Origin: Dehalococcoidia bacterium
Lineage (GTDB): Bacteria; Chloroflexota; Dehalococcoidia; UBA6926
Length of the DNA stretch: 64,000 bases
Reading direction: 5' to 3'
Assembly (NCBI GenBank): GCA_965214725.1
Contig: OZ243973.1
Coordinates: 801,938-865,937 of the forward strand
Each line of letters opens with the position of its first letter. Positions within the stretch are counted from its first letter, which is position 1. The translations under genes and the position numbers were made by a program. The notes under the pieces were generated by a model. The model was not told where the DNA came from. It was given only the letters and a program-made list of their open reading frames with translations, and searched no databases. Shown here piece after piece: positions 34,325 through 44,490 of the stretch.

Positions 34325-34708
34325 TCAACTGCCATGACTGCCGTGATAGTGCAGTCGAGCCTCAACAAGTTGGCCATGAACAGGGTCCGCCGCCATCCCC
34401 AATCCCTCCAACGCATGTGCCCCAAGCAGTGGCTTGGCGCCGCTTGGACCGAACAGCACAATGGTCGTCGCCTCAAACCCGTTCACCTTAACGACGGCCT
34501 CGCCCATGTCCATGCTGATGACCCGACCGTCCGCTAATTCAAAGGGGCGCGACTGTGCAGGCGTGACACCGATGCTGGCGAGGAAATCGGATGGCAGCAC
34601 GCTATACGCGGCGCCGGTGTCCACCGTCGCCTCAACATCGCGCCCAGCATTGCCATCACGGCTCGCGAACTGAACCGTCGCATCAAACACACCCACAGAA
34701 TCTTGCAT
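34325..34708 (-). CDS. Retropepsin-like (clan AA) aspartyl protease, paralog 1
   Basis: VEATVDTGAAYSVLP catalytic DTG(A) motif plus the downstream GxxxLLGxxxL pattern. Confidence 0.65.
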   Translation of the reverse strand: MQDSVGVFDATVQFASRDGNAGRDVEATVDTGAAYSVLPSDFLASIGVTPAQSRPFELADGRVISMDMGEAVVKVNGFEATTIVLFGPSGAKPLLGAHALEGLGMAADPVHGQLVEARLHYHGSHGS

Positions 34709-34870
34709 TTTACTTCCCCATACAGACAAGTCGAATGGAATTCCGATTCTTCCCGTACCTCTTAATTCTAGCCCCCTTACAAATCTCAGACAGAACGGTG
34801 ACAATGGGTGCAGAGTTGGCCACCAGTTGGTAGCCAACTGGAAGCAATCAACGTAGGGGAGGGACGTTAC

Positions 34871-36586
34871 ATGGTCATGGAAGCTCGTAACAGGCGCCTG
34901 CCTGACTGGCTGATTCGTGTAAAGAGTGGCCAGTTAGCCCTTCCAAGATTTCAGCGATTCGAGAGCTGGGGCCACGGAGATATTGAAACTCTTCTAGACA
35001 CCGTACTCCGCAAGAGACCAATTGGGGCTGCGTTGGTACTTGCCATCGGCGACAAGGAGCCATTCGTAAGCCGCGCAATGGCAGGCGTACCGCAACCAAC
35101 TGAACGGACTACTGAGCACCTCTTGGACGGGCAACAGAGACTAACTGCGTTGTGGAAGGCACTAAACGACGGATACACGGACCGGACTTATTTTGCGGTG
35201 CTTCAGCCTGATGTTGACGATCCATCATTCGTCAAGAGCTACAGTCGATGGCACAGAAATGGACAACGGTACCCTCTTTGGGTTGACCGGCCAGCTGAAC
35301 AGTGGAATCGCGGTCTGGTGCCTTTGCGCCTTCTCAACCCGGACGCAGATTCCAGTGAAATAGGTGCTTGGTGTGATTCAGCTACAGATTCTCTAGAAGA
35401 CAGTCGTGACTTAGAGCGCAAACTGCAAGTACATCGAACCGCCTTGCAAGAGGCAAACCTCCCCTTCCTAGAATTACCGGTTGACACGCCTCCTGATGAA
35501 GCAATCGACGTCTTTATCAAGATGAATACTACTTCGGTCCGCCTCACTGCATTCGATATTGTAGTCGCTCAGATGGAAGCAGCCACAGGTCAATCGCTGC
35601 ACGAGCTTGAAGGATCGTTGCGTTCGGCAGTACGCGAGGCTGAATGGTATGTCGATATTTCGGACTTGATCCTCCGAGTAGCTGCCCTCAGGGAAAACCG
35701 ACCACCAACAGAGTCCTCCTTCATGCGCCTGGACATGCAACGGCTCTCGGACGAGTGGGAGGCCATTCAACAAGGGGTAGATGGTGCAATCAGATTTCTA
35801 AGGGAAGAGCACATCTATGATCGCGAGCGGTTGCCCACGGTCGCAGTGGTACCAGTTCTTGCGGCAATCTGGAGTCAAATGCCTCAGTCTCTTGATGCAC
35901 ATGGTGAAGCGCGTACGCTGCTCCGAACATATTTGTGGCGTGCATTCTTCACTGACAGGTATGATCGAGCGGCTGGCACGGCCGCCTTACAAGACTATCG
36001 TGGACTAAAGTCCCGGCTGGTTGACGCGGATGGTGATGCTCTAGCCCCAATATTCGAGGAGCATCGGTTCCCCGTAGCCGAAATCGAGCAAATAGAAAGG
36101 GCGCCTTGGCCTAGGCTCCGGAACACTTTGGCGCGCGCAATACTCGCAGTGTCGCTGCGGGCAGGTGGCAGGGATTTTGCCGACGATAGTCCAGTAAGTT
36201 CAGAATCTCTTTCCAGAAGGGAGTATCATCATCTTTTTCCCGAGGCTCTCTTGAGGAATGATGGCTTGCTTGAGGATTCAGAAATTCACTTGGCATTAAA
36301 CTGCGCTTTGGTCACTTGGAATACCAACCGTAATATCGCCGCCAAGGAACCTGTTGCCTACCTGCGGGAGCGTGTTGAACGGGCGCCACTAGGCGAGGAT
36401 CAGATTCGTAGCAGACTTGATTCCCACATCATCCCGTTCAGTTTCCTAAATGTTGGTGGTTATGCCAATATGGTCGATAAAGACGCTCGTGCAACGAAAA
36501 TCGGGACAGACTACAGCGATTTTGTACGAGCCCGCGCCGCGGCAATTCACGAGGTAGTAACTAGGCTGTGCAATGGCGAGGAGTAA
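34871..36586 (+). CDS. Second GmrSD-like DUF262/DUF1524 fusion protein (putative type IV restriction endonuclease)
   Basis: DGQQRLTALWKAL (DUF262). C-terminal …EYHHLFPEALL…HLALNCALVTWNTNRNIAAKEP (DUF1524 H-N-H-like). Low-GC gene. ATG at 34871 follows an AGGGGAGGGA RBS. Confidence 0.7.
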   Translation: MVMEARNRRLPDWLIRVKSGQLALPRFQRFESWGHGDIETLLDTVLRKRPIGAALVLAIGDKEPFVSRAMAGVPQPTERTTEHLLDGQQRLTALWKALNDGYTDRTYFAVLQPDVDDPSFVKSYSRWHRNGQRYPLWVDRPAEQWNRGLVPLRLLNPDADSSEIGAWCDSATDSLEDSRDLERKLQVHRTALQEANLPFLELPVDTPPDEAIDVFIKMNTTSVRLTAFDIVVAQMEAATGQSLHELEGSLRSAVREAEWYVDISDLILRVAALRENRPPTESSFMRLDMQRLSDEWEAIQQGVDGAIRFLREEHIYDRERLPTVAVVPVLAAIWSQMPQSLDAHGEARTLLRTYLWRAFFTDRYDRAAGTAALQDYRGLKSRLVDADGDALAPIFEEHRFPVAEIEQIERAPWPRLRNTLARAILAVSLRAGGRDFADDSPVSSESLSRREYHHLFPEALLRNDGLLEDSEIHLALNCALVTWNTNRNIAAKEPVAYLRERVERAPLGEDQIRSRLDSHIIPFSFLNVGGYANMVDKDARATKIGTDYSDFVRARAAAIHEVVTRLCNGEE

Positions 36587-36610
36587 GCGGGCCTGCCACG
36601 GTCCTCACCC

Positions 36611-36641
36611 GATGGATTCCCGCTTGCGCGGGAATGAGGGG
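36611..36641. repeat. REP1-family element
   Basis: gatggattcccgcttgcgcgggaatgaggggac. Confidence 0.8.
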
Positions 36642-36683
36642 ACGGGACACCGGAGCGGGGCGGGTTAGCGAGGAAGCAGGCCT

Positions 36684-36709
36684 GTCATTCTGAGCGCAGC
36701 GAAGAATCC
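36684..36709. repeat. REP2-family element, short form
   Basis: gtcattctgagcgcagcgaagaatcc. Confidence 0.8.
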
Positions 36710-36754
36710 AAGAGGGTGTTCTGGGGGCAGGGTGCTTCTGCAAGCGCCCCCGCC

Positions 36755-37108
36755 CTACAACGTCAATTCTGCTTGGATGAGCTCGCCTTTTAGGGGGTCC
36801 ACTTGCAGCGCCAACGCCTCCAGCGTGTAGGCGCCCAACAGCGGCCTCGACTCCTCTGGCCCGAAGATAACGTACGTTGACACGTTCACACCGTTATACG
36901 CGATCATCGCCTCCCCGATGGGCATGTCCAGTTTTCGGCCATCGGCGACGTTGAACGTTCGTGTCTGTGTTGGAGTGATGCCGAGTTCATCCAGCACGAC
37001 TGAGGGCAGGAGCGAGAAGAAGGCTCCGGTATCCACCAGGGCCTCAACATCGCGTGAGTGGGTTCCCTCTCGATTTGAAACCGTTATTCCTACCCGAAAC
37101 GCCCCCAT
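36755..37108 (-). CDS. Retropepsin-like (clan AA) aspartyl protease, paralog 2
   Basis: VEALVDTGAFFSLLP DTG motif; ~45% identical to the 34325..34708 product. Confidence 0.65.
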   Translation of the reverse strand: MGAFRVGITVSNREGTHSRDVEALVDTGAFFSLLPSVVLDELGITPTQTRTFNVADGRKLDMPIGEAMIAYNGVNVSTYVIFGPEESRPLLGAYTLEALALQVDPLKGELIQAELTL

Positions 37109-37186
37109 AGCACAATCGCTCCTTCCATTTCTGTAAGTCAGCCCGGTTGGCCAGTGTAATCGCGGATTAGTATACAGTCCTTCCCA

Positions 37187-37219
37187 GATGGATACCCGCT
37201 TTCGCGGGTATGAGGGGAG
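37187..37219. repeat. REP1-family element (tacccgc variant)
   Basis: gatggatacccgctttcgcgggtatgaggggagg. Confidence 0.8.
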
Positions 37220-37496
37220 GCGGGCATGAGGGAAGATGAGCGAGCGGGCACACCTACCGATTGTCACGGACAGGGTCAAAGCCTCTGAGCGGTTCAGCAC
37301 GCCTAGTCGCAATGCGCAGATAGTGGATTTTGGCCGTCCCCGCAATACCGGAGAGAGACGAGAATGAGGGCAGGCGGCGGCTCCTGTCCTTGACCGCGTC
37401 GGGCGGGACGCCTATCGTACTCGCAGATTGGGTGGCGTGGAGAATCAGAATCATAATGCCGCGCGGCGCGCCCTATCACCGGGGGAGAGGATCACC

Positions 37497-41300: not shown

Positions 41301-41379
41301 GGATTTCTCGCATGCGTCCTGCCTGACCGCCGCACCTGCCGGCGCCGGTGACAATCGCAACGGCAAAGGATAGCCCGTC

Positions 41380-41955
41380 ATGGCCACAACAACCGCAAGC
41401 GCATCGACCAAGCCTCAGGTCGTCACAGCAGATGACCTGTTGCAGCGTGGCTCCACTGGCCCGCGCGGGGAGCTTATTCGAGGAGTGTTTTGCGAGATGC
41501 CGCCACCGGGACATGAGCATGGAGAAATCATCATGCGCCTTGGCGCTATGCTTCTTGGCGCCGTGACTCAATCCGGACTGGGCAGAGTTTCGGGCGCCGA
41601 CTCCGGCGTCTGGGTTGAGCGGAATCCCGACACGGTGCGGGCGCCGGACGTCTCCTTCTTTTCGGTTGAACGGATGCCGCTTGATGCCGCCATCCCCGGC
41701 TATGCAGAGATTGTGCCGGACCTGGCCGTTGAAGTTGTCTCACCGAATGATCGAGTAACCGAGGTTAATGACAAGGCCCGCATGTGGATCGATGCCGGCG
41801 TCAAACTCGTCTGGGTGGTCTGGCCGCAGTGGCACACCGTTGAGGTTCATCAACCCGACGCAGCAACCATTGAGCTCAGCGGAGATGCCACGCTTGACGG
41901 TCAGGATGTGCTGCCCGGCTTCTCCACGCCCATCAGCGCCATCTTCGCAGCCTGA
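41380..41955 (+). CDS. Uma2 family (DUF820) putative restriction-endonuclease-like protein, tandem copy 1
   Basis: …PDLAVEVVSPNDRVTEVNDKARMWIDAGVKLVWVV… is a typical Uma2/PD-(D/E)xK signature. Confidence 0.75.
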   Translation: MATTTASASTKPQVVTADDLLQRGSTGPRGELIRGVFCEMPPPGHEHGEIIMRLGAMLLGAVTQSGLGRVSGADSGVWVERNPDTVRAPDVSFFSVERMPLDAAIPGYAEIVPDLAVEVVSPNDRVTEVNDKARMWIDAGVKLVWVVWPQWHTVEVHQPDAATIELSGDATLDGQDVLPGFSTPISAIFAA

Positions 41956-41967
41956 GGATAGCCCGTC

Positions 41968-42543
41968 ATGGCCACAACAACCGCAAGCGCATCGACCAAG
42001 CCTCAGGTCGTCACAGCAGATGACCTGCTGCAGCGTGGCTCTACTGGCCCGCGCGGGGAACTTATTCGAGGAGTGTTTTGCGAAATGCCACCAGCGGGAC
42101 TTGAACATGGGCGTGTCGTCGCAAATCTCACAGTGTTGGTCTTGACGGCCGTGAGACAGAATGCACTGGGTACTGTGGCGTCAAATGACCCCGGCGTCTG
42201 GGTGGAGAAAGACCCCGATACCGTGCGGGCGCCGGACGTCGCCTTCTTTTCCACAGAACGTATGGACCCGACCGCAGCTGTCCATGGCTATGCAGAGATT
42301 GTGCCGGACCTGGCCGTTGAAGTTGTCTCACCGAATGATCGCGTAACCGAGGTTAATGACAAGGCCCGTATGTGGATCGATGCCGGCGTCAAACTCGTCT
42401 GGGTGGTGTGGCCGCAGTGGCACACCGTTGAGGTTCATCAACCCGACGCAGCAATCATTGAGCTCAGCGGAGATGCCACGCTTGACGGTCAGGATGTGCT
42501 GCCCGGCTTCTCCACCCCCATCAGCGCCATCTTCGCAGCCTGA
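41968..42543 (+). CDS. Uma2 family (DUF820) protein, tandem copy 2 (identical N- and C-termini to copy 1, divergent central ~70 aa)
   Basis: 588-bp tandem duplication unit including ~10 nt of the 5' leader (gatagcccgtcATG). Terminal thirds are identical; the middle is diverged. Confidence 0.75.
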   Translation: MATTTASASTKPQVVTADDLLQRGSTGPRGELIRGVFCEMPPAGLEHGRVVANLTVLVLTAVRQNALGTVASNDPGVWVEKDPDTVRAPDVAFFSTERMDPTAAVHGYAEIVPDLAVEVVSPNDRVTEVNDKARMWIDAGVKLVWVVWPQWHTVEVHQPDAAIIELSGDATLDGQDVLPGFSTPISAIFAA

Positions 42544-42578
42544 GGCCCCGGCCTCCCCCGCCACTCATGGCGGCTCTC

Positions 42579-43517
42579 CTACCCCTTGAAGACGTGCGTG
42601 TTATGCCACTCAAGGGCGTCCCGATCCGGCCTGTCAATCTCTGATTCAGGGATGAGAATCTCCTGACCGTCGTAGGCATAATATTCTCGCCCATTCTGGA
42701 ATTCCCATCTGATGCTCCCGCTGACTTTGAAGTGATAGTCCGGCGTAACGGTGACGTATCCCTCATCAAAGAGCTTGTGGATGTCCCGACGGAGCAACAA
42801 ACCATTGCTCGGCTCGTGTTCTCCATCCTTGCGGTACGGGCGGATGTGTGCCGCCTCTAAGGCGGGCAGCGTACGTTCCCGAGTAACAGCACACCGACGG
42901 TCATAAAGGTCCGCAACAATCGTTCGGAAACCACCCTGCCCCAGCCTTGGCTTAACGACCTGCGGGGCTCCGTACCTCTCTCGTCCTTCTGCAACAAGAG
43001 TTGCTGCCTCTCGAACTGCCTCGCGAGCTACGCGCTCCTGGAAAGCCCCCCTGAGTGCGCGTTCTATCTCTTGATCCTTTACACTGTCGTACCCCTTGCC
43101 GGTGACAATGTTCGGATGCCAGTCAGGAGGCGGGTCCATCCAGTCAGCCTCATCGAAAAAGAATGGCTGCAAGAGGACTCGGCATACGATCTCCGTGCGT
43201 GGGCCCTTCCACCCGTGTTTCGTGAGTCCCTCAAGAAATTCCTCTGGAGTTTCTGCCCCGTTATTTTCCTCGAAGGATTCCCAAGCAAAAAAGGGCGGGA
43301 GGATGGTTGAATACCGAAAATATGCTCCACCGACAATCTTGTTCCTAGGCGCATGCAACTTGAACAGGAACAGAGCACCCTGTTCAAGAGAACCAAGATT
43401 GTCCTTGCCAGACGGTGACCAAAAATTGACTTCACTTGGCTGGGGTTGGCGCTCTCTCAGCGTCCGAAACCAGTCATAGTCCGTGACCGCGACGACGAGG
43501 TTGATGGGCATGGTCAC
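42579..43517 (-). CDS. HNH endonuclease (HNH_2-type, AHIxPY…NGLLLRxDIHxLFD) with an N-terminal uncharacterised (possibly PUA/EVE-like) domain
   Basis: …CAVTRERTLPALEAAHIRPYRKDGEHEPSNGLLLRRDIHKLFDEGYVTV… is the HNH_2 signature. The N-terminal ~150 aa are unassigned. Confidence 0.6.
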   Translation of the reverse strand: MTMPINLVVAVTDYDWFRTLRERQPQPSEVNFWSPSGKDNLGSLEQGALFLFKLHAPRNKIVGGAYFRYSTILPPFFAWESFEENNGAETPEEFLEGLTKHGWKGPRTEIVCRVLLQPFFFDEADWMDPPPDWHPNIVTGKGYDSVKDQEIERALRGAFQERVAREAVREAATLVAEGRERYGAPQVVKPRLGQGGFRTIVADLYDRRCAVTRERTLPALEAAHIRPYRKDGEHEPSNGLLLRRDIHKLFDEGYVTVTPDYHFKVSGSIRWEFQNGREYYAYDGQEILIPESEIDRPDRDALEWHNTHVFKG

Positions 43518-43611: not shown

Positions 43612-44304
43612 GTGGACACACCAACTCTGAGACGCCCCGCCACGGTGATCTGCGCCGCCTTGGTGGTGGCTGCCCTCCTCCTCATCGGTTGTGGCAGCGA
43701 GGATTCACCGGCCGTGACGCCATCCCCCACCACGCCGCCAGCATCAACCGCCACCCCCGTTCCAACTCCAACGTCACCGCCGACACCTGTCGCCCCAGCA
43801 GAGACATCCACCCCCGAGTCGGACGGGCCGCAGGCGCCCGATTTCTCGCTGCCGACAGGCGATGGCGCAACGCACACGCTGGACGGGCTGTTGGCGGGGC
43901 GCGAGGCGCTCGTGTTGGTCTTCTATCGCAGCTACCTTTGAGGCATCTGCCAACAGCAGCTCGTCGAGCTGCAGACCCTGTACCATGAGTTTGAGGGCCG
44001 AAACGTCGGACTCGCCGCCATCAGCACAGACACCCGGACGAATGCGGAGCAGATGCGGGATTTCGCCGCAGCCGAGTTCCCGATCCTCGCGGATACGAGC
44101 GAGGATGTCGCCAAAGAGTACGGTGTGTTCAACCTGTTGGAAGACGGCGTGGCCGCGCCCGCAACGTTCATCATTCAGCCGGACGGCGCCATTGTCTGGT
44201 GGTACATCGGTGTCAACATAGGCGACCGCGTCCCTACCCGGGCGATTTTGGAGGTGCTCGACGCGTTTCTGGAGGGTGGGCCGGTCAGGACAGCGGCCGT
44301 GTAG
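43612..44304 (+). CDS. Candidate selenoprotein: lipoprotein-anchored peroxiredoxin/redoxin-family thiol peroxidase with in-frame UGA (43939-43941) at the first position of the CxxC active site (U-G-I-C)
   Basis: N-terminal lipoprotein signal (LLLIGCGS), a Pro/Thr linker, then …ALVLVFYRSYL-TGA-GICQQQLVELQ…. This aligns to the redoxin motif FYRGxW-C-PxC-xxQL with the TGA at the catalytic Cys. The reading frame stays open after the TGA to 44304 and encodes the rest of a redoxin domain (…FPILADTSEDVAKEYGV…). An 8-bp-stem hairpin with a GUC apical loop starts 12 nt downstream of the UGA (43954-43974), consistent with a bacterial SECIS. Confidence 0.55.
43954..43974 (+). promoter_or_regulatory. bSECIS-like hairpin (cagcagcuc-GUC-gagcugcag) 12 nt downstream of the in-frame UGA
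   Basis: Seen directly in the sequence; the apical loop contains GU, as in characterised bacterial SECIS elements. Confidence 0.45.
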
Positions 44305-44490
44305 GCGGGCGCACACTCATCACACTAGCAAGCAGCAAAAGCCTAATCCTGCCCTTGCTCACGCACCACGGCCTTGCGGGCGCACACTTCACACGCGCAA
44401 GCAGCAAAAGCCTAATCCTGCCCTTGCTCACGCACCGCGGCCTTGCGGGCGCACACTCATCACACTAGCAAACAGCAAAAGCTTAAAATC
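44305..44490. repeat. ~70-bp tandem direct repeat, 2.6 copies, between convergent genes
   Basis: Unit ggcgcacac…gcaagcagcaaaagcctaatcctgcccttgctcacgcaccRcggccttgcg is repeated at 44307, 44378 and 44447 (partial). Confidence 0.8.

Follow-up and report, generated by a model that had tools for sequence, protein, structure and literature searches.

A mosaic pair of tandem Uma2 genes

In the genome of a Dehalococcoidia bacterium (Chloroflexota, UBA6926; NCBI GenBank assembly GCA_965214725.1), a stretch of 64,000 nucleotides of contig OZ243973.1 (positions 801,938 to 865,937 of the forward strand, here called the window) contains two tandem genes for Uma2 proteins, UmaA and UmaB, that are a mosaic of nearly identical ends and strongly divergent centres. 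A convergent gene for an HNH endonuclease follows them (Table 1). The UmaA and UmaB proteins are 100% identical over residues 1-42 and differ over residues 107-191 by T163I only, whereas residues 43-106 are 55% identical (35/64). A first-pass annotation made from the nucleotide letters had already proposed identical ends around a core of about 50% identity. This description stands for the core and for the first 42 residues; the common tail is longer than the ~75 residues it gave, namely 85 residues with the single T163I exchange, and since 10 nucleotides differ in the ends, these are near-identical rather than identical.

At the nucleotide (nt) level the copies show 5/126 differences in codons 1-42, 75/192 in codons 43-106 and 5/258 in codons 107-191, which corresponds to 96-98% identity at both flanks and 61% in the centre (heterogeneity between segments, Fisher p = 2.9e-30). 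Nine of the 10 flank differences are synonymous. Synonymous divergence (dS, Nei-Gojobori) for the three segments is 0.17, 1.26 and 0.07, respectively; the centre is saturated, with a ratio of non-synonymous to synonymous divergence (dN/dS, omega) of 0.3-0.5. Because dS differs about 10-fold between the segments, the mosaic is real and results from recombination rather than from uneven constraint or drift, and the simple neutral drift against which the first-pass annotation wanted the pattern checked is excluded. The centre shows about as many transitions as transversions (35:40), a sign of saturation, and no adenine bias; in GC content it does not differ from the flanks or the genome.

The open reading frame (ORF) listing places the two start codons 588 nt apart, and repeat finding detects a direct repeat (D2) that begins at 41367, which together bear out the proposed tandem duplication of a 588-bp unit including its leader. 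The leader of UmaA, AGGATAGCCCGTC, has the same letters as the one before UmaB; it is shared as proposed, and is 13 nt long instead of 10 nt. Correspondingly, the 12 nt of the spacer GGATAGCCCGTC (13 with the preceding A) also stand ahead of UmaA.

Gene conversion and maintenance in a sister strain

The same gene order, infC-rpmI-rplT-Uma2-Uma2-HNH, is found on a 292-kb metagenomic contig (L007) that is 96-99% identical to the window and was used for a four-way comparison of paralogues and strains. An assembly artefact is excluded by this independent assembly, in which the arrangement recurs with 98% identity. Four paralogue-specific flank sites (117, 123, 375 and 441) are common to both strains, and at site 479 a change occurs in both paralogues of one strain only. 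The UmaB gene of L007 carries A-type letters at nt 312-318, with four differences crowded into 7 nt at the right-hand border of the divergent block. The probability of such clustering is ~0.003, or ~4e-5 if all four changes must match the paralogue (a factor of (1/3)^4). This patch is an A-to-B gene-conversion tract that is younger than the split of the strains and has shifted the block edge; together with site 479 it gives direct sight of the conversion between the copies' ends that had been proposed. The centres themselves differ little between the strains, with 2/192 nt changed in A and 6/192 nt in B. Helix α1 within the block has no differences in A and two, both synonymous, in B. Since the centres are nearly unchanged between the strains, both centre types are maintained.

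Family membership, fold and active site

UmaA and UmaB both match the Pfam family Uma2 (PF05685) far above the cut-off of 27 bits, over 167 of the 172 profile positions and with E ~5e-30 (scores in Table 1). Both also match by sequence four solved structures of the Uma2 family, all of which are uncharacterised structural-genomics entries. The AlphaFold2 (AF2) model of UmaA (predicted local distance difference test score, pLDDT, 87) has the restriction-endonuclease-like fold seen in 1WDJ and 3OT2, and in Foldseek it aligns to 1wdj, 3ot2, 6okh and 9y1l with E = 1e-13 and TM 0.7-0.89. Feder & Bujnicki (PMC551604) describe the PD-EXX-K variant site of all3650 as H43, D83, E111 and K127; the equivalents here are H47, D90, E118 and K132. 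In an alignment of 121 family members conservation is complete for the first three and at least 90% for K132, and all four are present in both copies. The divergent core had been thought to carry the putative catalytic region. It does hold H47 and D90, as well as the conserved DPDTVRAPD motif, which in the model falls within strands 68-95; the catalytic residues are however invariant, and E118 and K132 lie outside the core in the identical C-terminal part.

Variation within the block is confined to helix α1 (45-65) and to the loop 96-106. Positions 50, 51, 54, 58, 61 and 62 of the helix are conserved, hydrophobic and buried, and positions 52, 53, 56, 57, 59, 60 and 63-66 in or just after it vary, several of them between hydrophobic residues of different size. 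Across the family, entropy peaks at residues 52-66 and 96-106, and also at 159-171.

The two genes lie on the same strand with a 12-nt spacer and have no separate antitoxin gene, as in the COG4636-COG4636 cassettes of the literature. The PADLOC model PDC-S03, a candidate defence class, matches both proteins (E = 5.6e-17 and 1.1e-16), and literature searches found no phenotype paper for this class. No NCBIfam model matches the Uma2 proteins, nor did literature searches find a biochemical characterisation or an experimental function of any Uma2 member.

Recurrence of the variable block in relatives

The nearest relatives come from Dehalococcoidia metagenome-assembled genomes (MAGs). One of these (L005, 3695-7247) has five tandem Uma2 genes, c1 to c5, with N-terminal flanks that are 94-99% and centres that are 59-80% identical at the nt level. 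The genes form a chequerboard: c1 and c5 have a common centre with different C-termini, c1 and c2 have a common C-terminus, and c4 and c5 a common C-terminal tail. Incompatibility affects 55% of the informative site pairs (permutation test of the pairwise homoplasy index (PHI) type, p < 0.0005). Most L005 pairs with unsaturated dS give dN/dS values of 0.8-1.3 for the helix, 0.8-2.4 for the loop and 0.1-0.4 for the flanks, a suggestive contrast, though over short segments. The spacers of this array have leaders of two types; a HicB-like domain is encoded upstream and an HTH_3 protein downstream, and a Pfam scan of the array flanks found only the HicB-like domain and the HTH domain.

Conserved flanks around a divergent centre were also observed in three metagenomic arrays (L087, L040 and L074). 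Among about 90 fetched loci, 12 have at least two Uma2 copies, and 11 of these are same-strand tandems. The block is not limited to such arrays. Next to the ATP-synthase operon, a Uma2 gene occurs as a single copy (L013 8001-8567, compared with L001 6001-6564); its surroundings are 96-100% identical, but nt identity drops to 56-84% in codons ~38-100. Because the two genes differ only there, the variable block is an allelic polymorphism as well.

The same discordance is seen among the 121 family members, where many pairs have a flank identity of at least 0.9 and a centre identity of 0.55-0.7. Converse pairs also occur, with centres that are 95-98% and flanks that are about 86% identical (for example flank 0.86, centre 0.98), and one half-cassette pair (P0006/P0009) differs in the helix half of the block only. 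Thus the shuffling of central segments among copies, for which the first-pass annotation had suggested a search, is visible both in the L005 chequerboard and in the flank/centre discordance of the family. The A centre is nearer to distant family members (69%) than to the B centre (55%). For the B centre the best match is UmaA, with 61%, and none is higher among 1.84 billion representatives of a library clustered at 50%; a B-centre orthologue with 97% identity (P0002) sits in the cluster represented by UmaA and hence outside the list of representatives. In one 709-aa representative (P0245) nine separate stretches match a 77-aa Uma2 centre query, and these may be repeated Uma2-like segments or a fused array.

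What the exchangeable block may do

The explanation that we consider fairly probable is a homogenised tandem Uma2 scaffold with an ancient, exchangeable cassette that acts as a recognition module and has a role in conflict or defence. On this view tandem duplication of the 588-bp unit gave the two paralogues, and recombination within the array, by gene conversion or unequal crossing-over, keeps both ends homogenised. Residues 43-106 (64 codons) form an ancient, separately evolving cassette that moves, or stays, as a whole. Its left and right borders are the family's two most conserved motifs, GELIRGV.CE and GYAE.VPDL.VEV.SP, respectively, which probably serve as recombination anchors. Each copy stably keeps its own cassette between strains, whereas relatives trade it among array members and alleles. 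Because the active-site residues are constant and the variation is limited to helix α1 and the loop 96-106, the block may confer recognition on a nuclease scaffold that is otherwise constant, and we infer that selection acts on it. The module would set the binding target, which could be a nucleic acid or a protein of an invader or partner, or else subunit pairing, and the specificities of a tandem array would amount to a small repertoire, most plausibly for defence or toxin-like conflict. Such a conflict or defence role is suggested indirectly by the PDC-S03 matches, by the genes for a GmrSD protein and the PUA-like HNH protein within 8 kb, and by proposals in the literature.

Several observations weigh against this explanation. 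The arrays L018, L036 and L056 show no mosaic. Over segments of 25 and 11 codons, a dN/dS of about 1 is as compatible with relaxed constraint as with positive selection. Viral contigs yielded no Uma2 relatives, and no defence genes recur consistently in the neighbourhoods of Uma2 relatives. The exhaustive search of the 1.84 billion representatives (50% clustering) yielded no donor of the B cassette; the pair may therefore be either an old duplicate with homogenised flanks or a recent one into which a foreign centre was imported, both processes being seen in relatives. Recognition and defence are inferred roles only. A wider generalisation, that Uma2 proteins as a family consist of a constant catalytic scaffold with a hypervariable recognition cassette (helix α1 and loop 96-106) traded at the anchors by paralogues and alleles, and that the arrays are germline-encoded repertoires kept diverse by conflict with phages and mobile elements, we regard as speculative and rather unlikely.

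A different role for the same block would be the insulation of subunit pairing, in which the variable helix and loop form a dimer interface that prevents mixed dimers or enforces an A-B heterodimer, so that the choice of partner and not of target is at stake. The variable helix positions are mostly hydrophobic and differ in size (A/G/I/F at 56, A/E/L/M at 57, G/L/F/W/R/V at 59), which favours pairing because such positions resemble a protein-protein interface more than a DNA-contacting surface. The solved Uma2 structures contain 2-3 chains per entry, and Uma2-Uma2 pairs are a recurrent two-gene arrangement. On the other hand, the same allelic variation occurs in single-copy Uma2 genes, though there dispersed paralogues of the same genome could still interfere. 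We consider insulation possible, but unlikely as the main role of the block; together with a neutral origin it is the strongest alternative.

The block could also be a neutral by-product. The least constrained part of the gene would drift below the identity needed for pairing, so that conversion could no longer cross it and only the flanks would be homogenised; in addition, occasional ectopic conversion from dispersed paralogues would be confined between two conserved motifs. No specificity function and no selection for diversity would then be needed. This agrees with the entropy maxima at 52-66 and 96-106 (and 159-171), with dN/dS values around and not clearly above 1, with block edges that fall on the most conserved motifs and with the equal GC content of centre and flanks. 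It is at variance with the complete (A) or purely synonymous (B) conservation of helix α1 between the strains, which indicates purifying selection on distinct centres, and with the block replaced between L013 and L001 inside nearly identical surroundings, which would require repeated fixation of imports. Moreover, the high-entropy segment 159-171 lies outside the sharply bounded mosaic of the window. A neutral origin therefore appears doubtful to us.

That the Uma2 pair and the HNH gene form a single three-gene nuclease system is very improbable, although in both strains they are convergent neighbours separated by 35 nt. In a related species (L014) an HNH gene lies close to rplT and a peroxiredoxin gene, and Uma2 is missing; Uma2 relatives (L001-L006, L012 and L013) have no HNH neighbour, and an HNH homologue (P0171) is solitary among insertion sequence (IS) elements. 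In L007 the Uma2 genes remain 98% identical, but the HNH gene has received a different body. The 'nuclease islet' of the first-pass annotation is thus a juxtaposition only, and the locus is a strain-variable spot with independent elements, not a functional unit.

Programmed diversification of the centre by a diversity-generating retroelement, an inversion shufflon or phase variation would explain a variable block sharply bounded between constant regions; it is extremely improbable given that the centres are stable across two strains, that substitutions show no adenine bias (13/75 at A in copy A, 22/75 in copy B), that there are no meaningful inverted repeats beside the block and that no reverse transcriptase or recombinase is found among the genes called within ~8 kb on either side of the syntenic locus in L007. 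The block was also tried as a target of a diversity-generating retroelement and rejected as such, having an unbiased spectrum free of adenine-specific substitutions. A simple duplication followed by uneven neutral drift, without any mosaic, could appeal to the centre being the more variable part of the family alignment, and is refuted by the dS contrast, by saturation in the centre only, by the sharp boundaries and by the visible conversion tract.

The neighbouring HNH endonuclease gene

The HNH gene product matches HNH_2 (PF13391) at aa 209-257 (48.4 bits, cut-off 21, E = 8e-13), and H224, N238 and H247 are invariant in 47 homologues (alignment A2). The ATG at 43511 is the likelier start because database homologues begin with MPINL or MAINL. 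The family has more than 7,500 full-length homologues of ~305 aa, with both halves conserved. The HNH region matches the EVE-HNH enzyme VcaM4I (6yex) with E = 4e-6 as a single sequence and 9e-10 as a profile, and outside this region no sequence match in the PDB was found. Residues 1-169 have no Pfam match at E <= 1, including to EVE, ASCH, SRA and YTH. The first-pass annotation had guessed at a PUA-, EVE- or SRA-like N-terminal domain and proposed structure prediction as the check. The AF2 model of this domain (pLDDT about 83-90) and Foldseek support the guess: in this structure prediction the best matches are ASCH domains (probability 1.0, TMt 0.6-0.7; ZmASCH 0.68), and the model further matches af2351, an archaeal McrB-N, YTH, TagI and full-length VcaM4I (E = 5e-8). 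The N-terminal domain is thus predicted to be PUA-like, not EVE, with ASCH as the structurally nearest family. The combination of a modelled PUA-like domain with HNH suggests a Type IV modification-dependent endonuclease. The model for the phosphorothioate-DNA-dependent endonuclease (NF045808) was rejected, as it scores 62.4 bits against a cut-off of 180 and only residues 195-311 align.

No DNA methyltransferase gene adjoins the HNH gene in the window or in the L007, L014 or P0171 loci. In the window and L007 it is flanked by Uma2 and a peroxiredoxin-like ORF; in L014 rhodanese and AhpC genes lie beside it, and the P0171 loci have IS elements there. The sole methyltransferase called in the P0171 loci, ~4.5 kb away, is of the UbiE/Methyltransf_11 type.

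Between the strains, the body of the gene (42620-43410 in the window, 8660-9450 in L007) is only 55-65% identical at the nt and 59% at the aa level, the sensor half (~43% aa) more divergent than the nuclease half (~70% aa). The alleles agree fully in their first 34 and last ~15 codons, and the sequence around the gene is 98-100% identical. The gene has therefore undergone in-place allelic replacement, with breakpoints that lie within its own sequence. At 59% to each, the L007 allele is about as far from the window allele as from that of L014. The order in L014 (7001-9165) is rplT, a 127-aa ORF, AhpC and HNH, and in the window rplT, Uma2, Uma2, HNH and the peroxiredoxin-like ORF. The position of the HNH gene on opposite sides of the peroxiredoxin gene in two species suggests either that the order was rearranged or that insertions took place independently at a hot spot that follows rplT.

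Gene context of the locus

The Uma2 pair lies downstream of infC-rpmI-rplT, and beyond the HNH gene there is a peroxiredoxin-like ORF with an in-frame TGA, which matches the earlier description of a ribosomal-protein operon on one side and a peroxiredoxin gene on the other. These two are the only Uma2 copies in the window. UmaA and UmaB are co-oriented and probably co-transcribed; no signal above background came from a scan for promoters and terminators or from folding the 35-nt gap before the convergent HNH gene.

Table 1. Coordinates (window numbering) of the features of the Uma2/HNH locus.
Feature	Position	Strand	Description
13-nt leader AGGATAGCCCGTC, shared	41367-41379	+	AGGA Shine-Dalgarno-like motif; left edge of first 588-bp unit
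UmaA	41380-41955	+	191 aa, Uma2/COG4636 PD-EXX-K nuclease-fold protein; PF05685 104.7 bits
UmaA divergent centre block, codons 43-106	41506-41697	+	helix α1 (45-65), strands 68-95 including PD motif, loop 96-106
12-nt spacer GGATAGCCCGTC, also UmaB leader	41956-41967	+	unchanged in L007
UmaB	41968-42543	+	191 aa, second Uma2 paralogue; PF05685 104.9 bits; catalytic residues kept
UmaB divergent centre block, codons 43-106, outlier cassette	42094-42285	+	farther from family consensus than A centre
PUA-like-HNH endonuclease gene	42579-43517	-	convergent with Uma2 pair; likely start ATG 43511
HNH protein C-terminal nuclease region, aa 185-312	42582-42965	-	family-invariant H224, N238, H247; HNH_2 hidden Markov model (HMM) match
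HNH protein N-terminal domain, ~145 aa, predicted PUA-like (ASCH/EVE-type) β-barrel, putative modified-base sensor	43083-43517	-	

The peroxiredoxin-like ORF (43612-44304, +) has a peroxiredoxin/thioredoxin fold and an N-terminal lipoprotein-like leader rich in proline and threonine. Its single in-frame TGA lies at 'FYRSYL*GICQQ', a U-x-x-C arrangement that makes it a candidate selenoprotein; in L007 it is called as two separate genes. This ORF and a DUF1801 gene converge on a gap that contains a 69-nt tandem repeat (44305-44486; 2.6 copies, 90% matches), which has a copy number unlike that in the sister strain and no other occurrence in the window. Further upstream, at 34325-37345, a GmrSD_N-domain protein (34808-36586, +) is encoded between two retropepsin-like aspartyl-protease ORFs (34325-34837 and 36755-37345, both on the - strand). 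The sister strain differs here: its GmrSD is another one, encoded on the opposite strand, and is accompanied by a PIN/PSK toxin-antitoxin pair. The GmrSD region, between thrS and a CoA-transferase gene, is a second strain-variable defence spot.

Comparison with known systems

Both tandem Uma2 cassettes and PUA-HNH enzymes have precedents. Papers on the Uma2 family note tandem Uma2 duplications (Feder & Bujnicki 2005, PMC551604), list 114 COG4636-COG4636 pairs (Makarova et al. 2009, PMC2701414), and propose selfish-element or solo-toxin roles for the family (PMC551604, PMC2701414). The window pair resembles the Uma2/COG4636/DUF820 (PF05685) cassettes treated there in HMM match, fold and H/D/E/K pattern, as well as in being a tandem same-strand pair with no associated methyltransferase or antitoxin that belongs to a lineage-specific expansion, here in Dehalococcoidia. 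It differs in having a bounded exchangeable block within homogenised copies, and in coming from the phylum Chloroflexota rather than from cyanobacteria or Thermus. Such a block was not found in the available text of PMC551604 and PMC2701414, and a recurrent, recombination-exchanged variable block beside an invariant Uma2 active site appears to be unreported in that part of the literature. Uma2/COG4636 genes make up as much as 2% of the genes in a genome (Gloeobacter) and have no established function; an exchanged block beside invariant catalytic residues marks a part of the protein worth testing in this orphan family, for which the locus suggests, indirectly, a conflict-related role.

Modification-dependent enzymes that join a domain of the PUA superfamily to HNH include VcaM4I and TspA15I (EVE-HNH), TagI and ScoA3IV (SRA-HNH) and ScoA3V (distant PUA-HNH) (PMC6765204, PMC7897488). 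The HNH protein of the window is similar to these in its size of ~310 aa, in the predicted N-terminal PUA-like β-barrel, in a C-terminal HNH region that matches VcaM4I, in having no adjacent methyltransferase and in being solitary in other genomes, and differs in an N-terminal domain that has no Pfam family match and is nearest to ASCH by predicted structure. The locus thereby reveals a widespread family of ~305-aa proteins with a predicted PUA-like sensor domain that is unannotated, and with alleles that are replaced in place between near-identical strains.

The locus also illustrates cleanly, in a natural setting, how concerted evolution can bypass a segment that is maintained. A comparable situation is found in the human RHD/RHCE genes, for which models of gene conversion with selection describe concerted evolution sparing a selected divergent segment. 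In both cases conversion homogenises the duplicates except for the segment in which differences are maintained, with the distinction that here the array is prokaryotic and the segment is exchanged among alleles and array members as well.

In the HsdS subunits of Type I restriction systems, divergent target-recognition cassettes are flanked by conserved framework anchors, and their swapping alters specificity while the catalytic machinery is constant. The Uma2 genes resemble HsdS by analogy, in that anchor-flanked divergent cassettes are traded between alleles and paralogues with catalysis constant. There is no relation in sequence or fold, and the Uma2 cassette is a segment of ~64 aa within a single-domain nuclease, with a putative role in specificity. 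If the recognition role holds, Uma2 arrays would be functionally analogous to the shuffling of Type I target-recognition domains, carried out inside one small protein.

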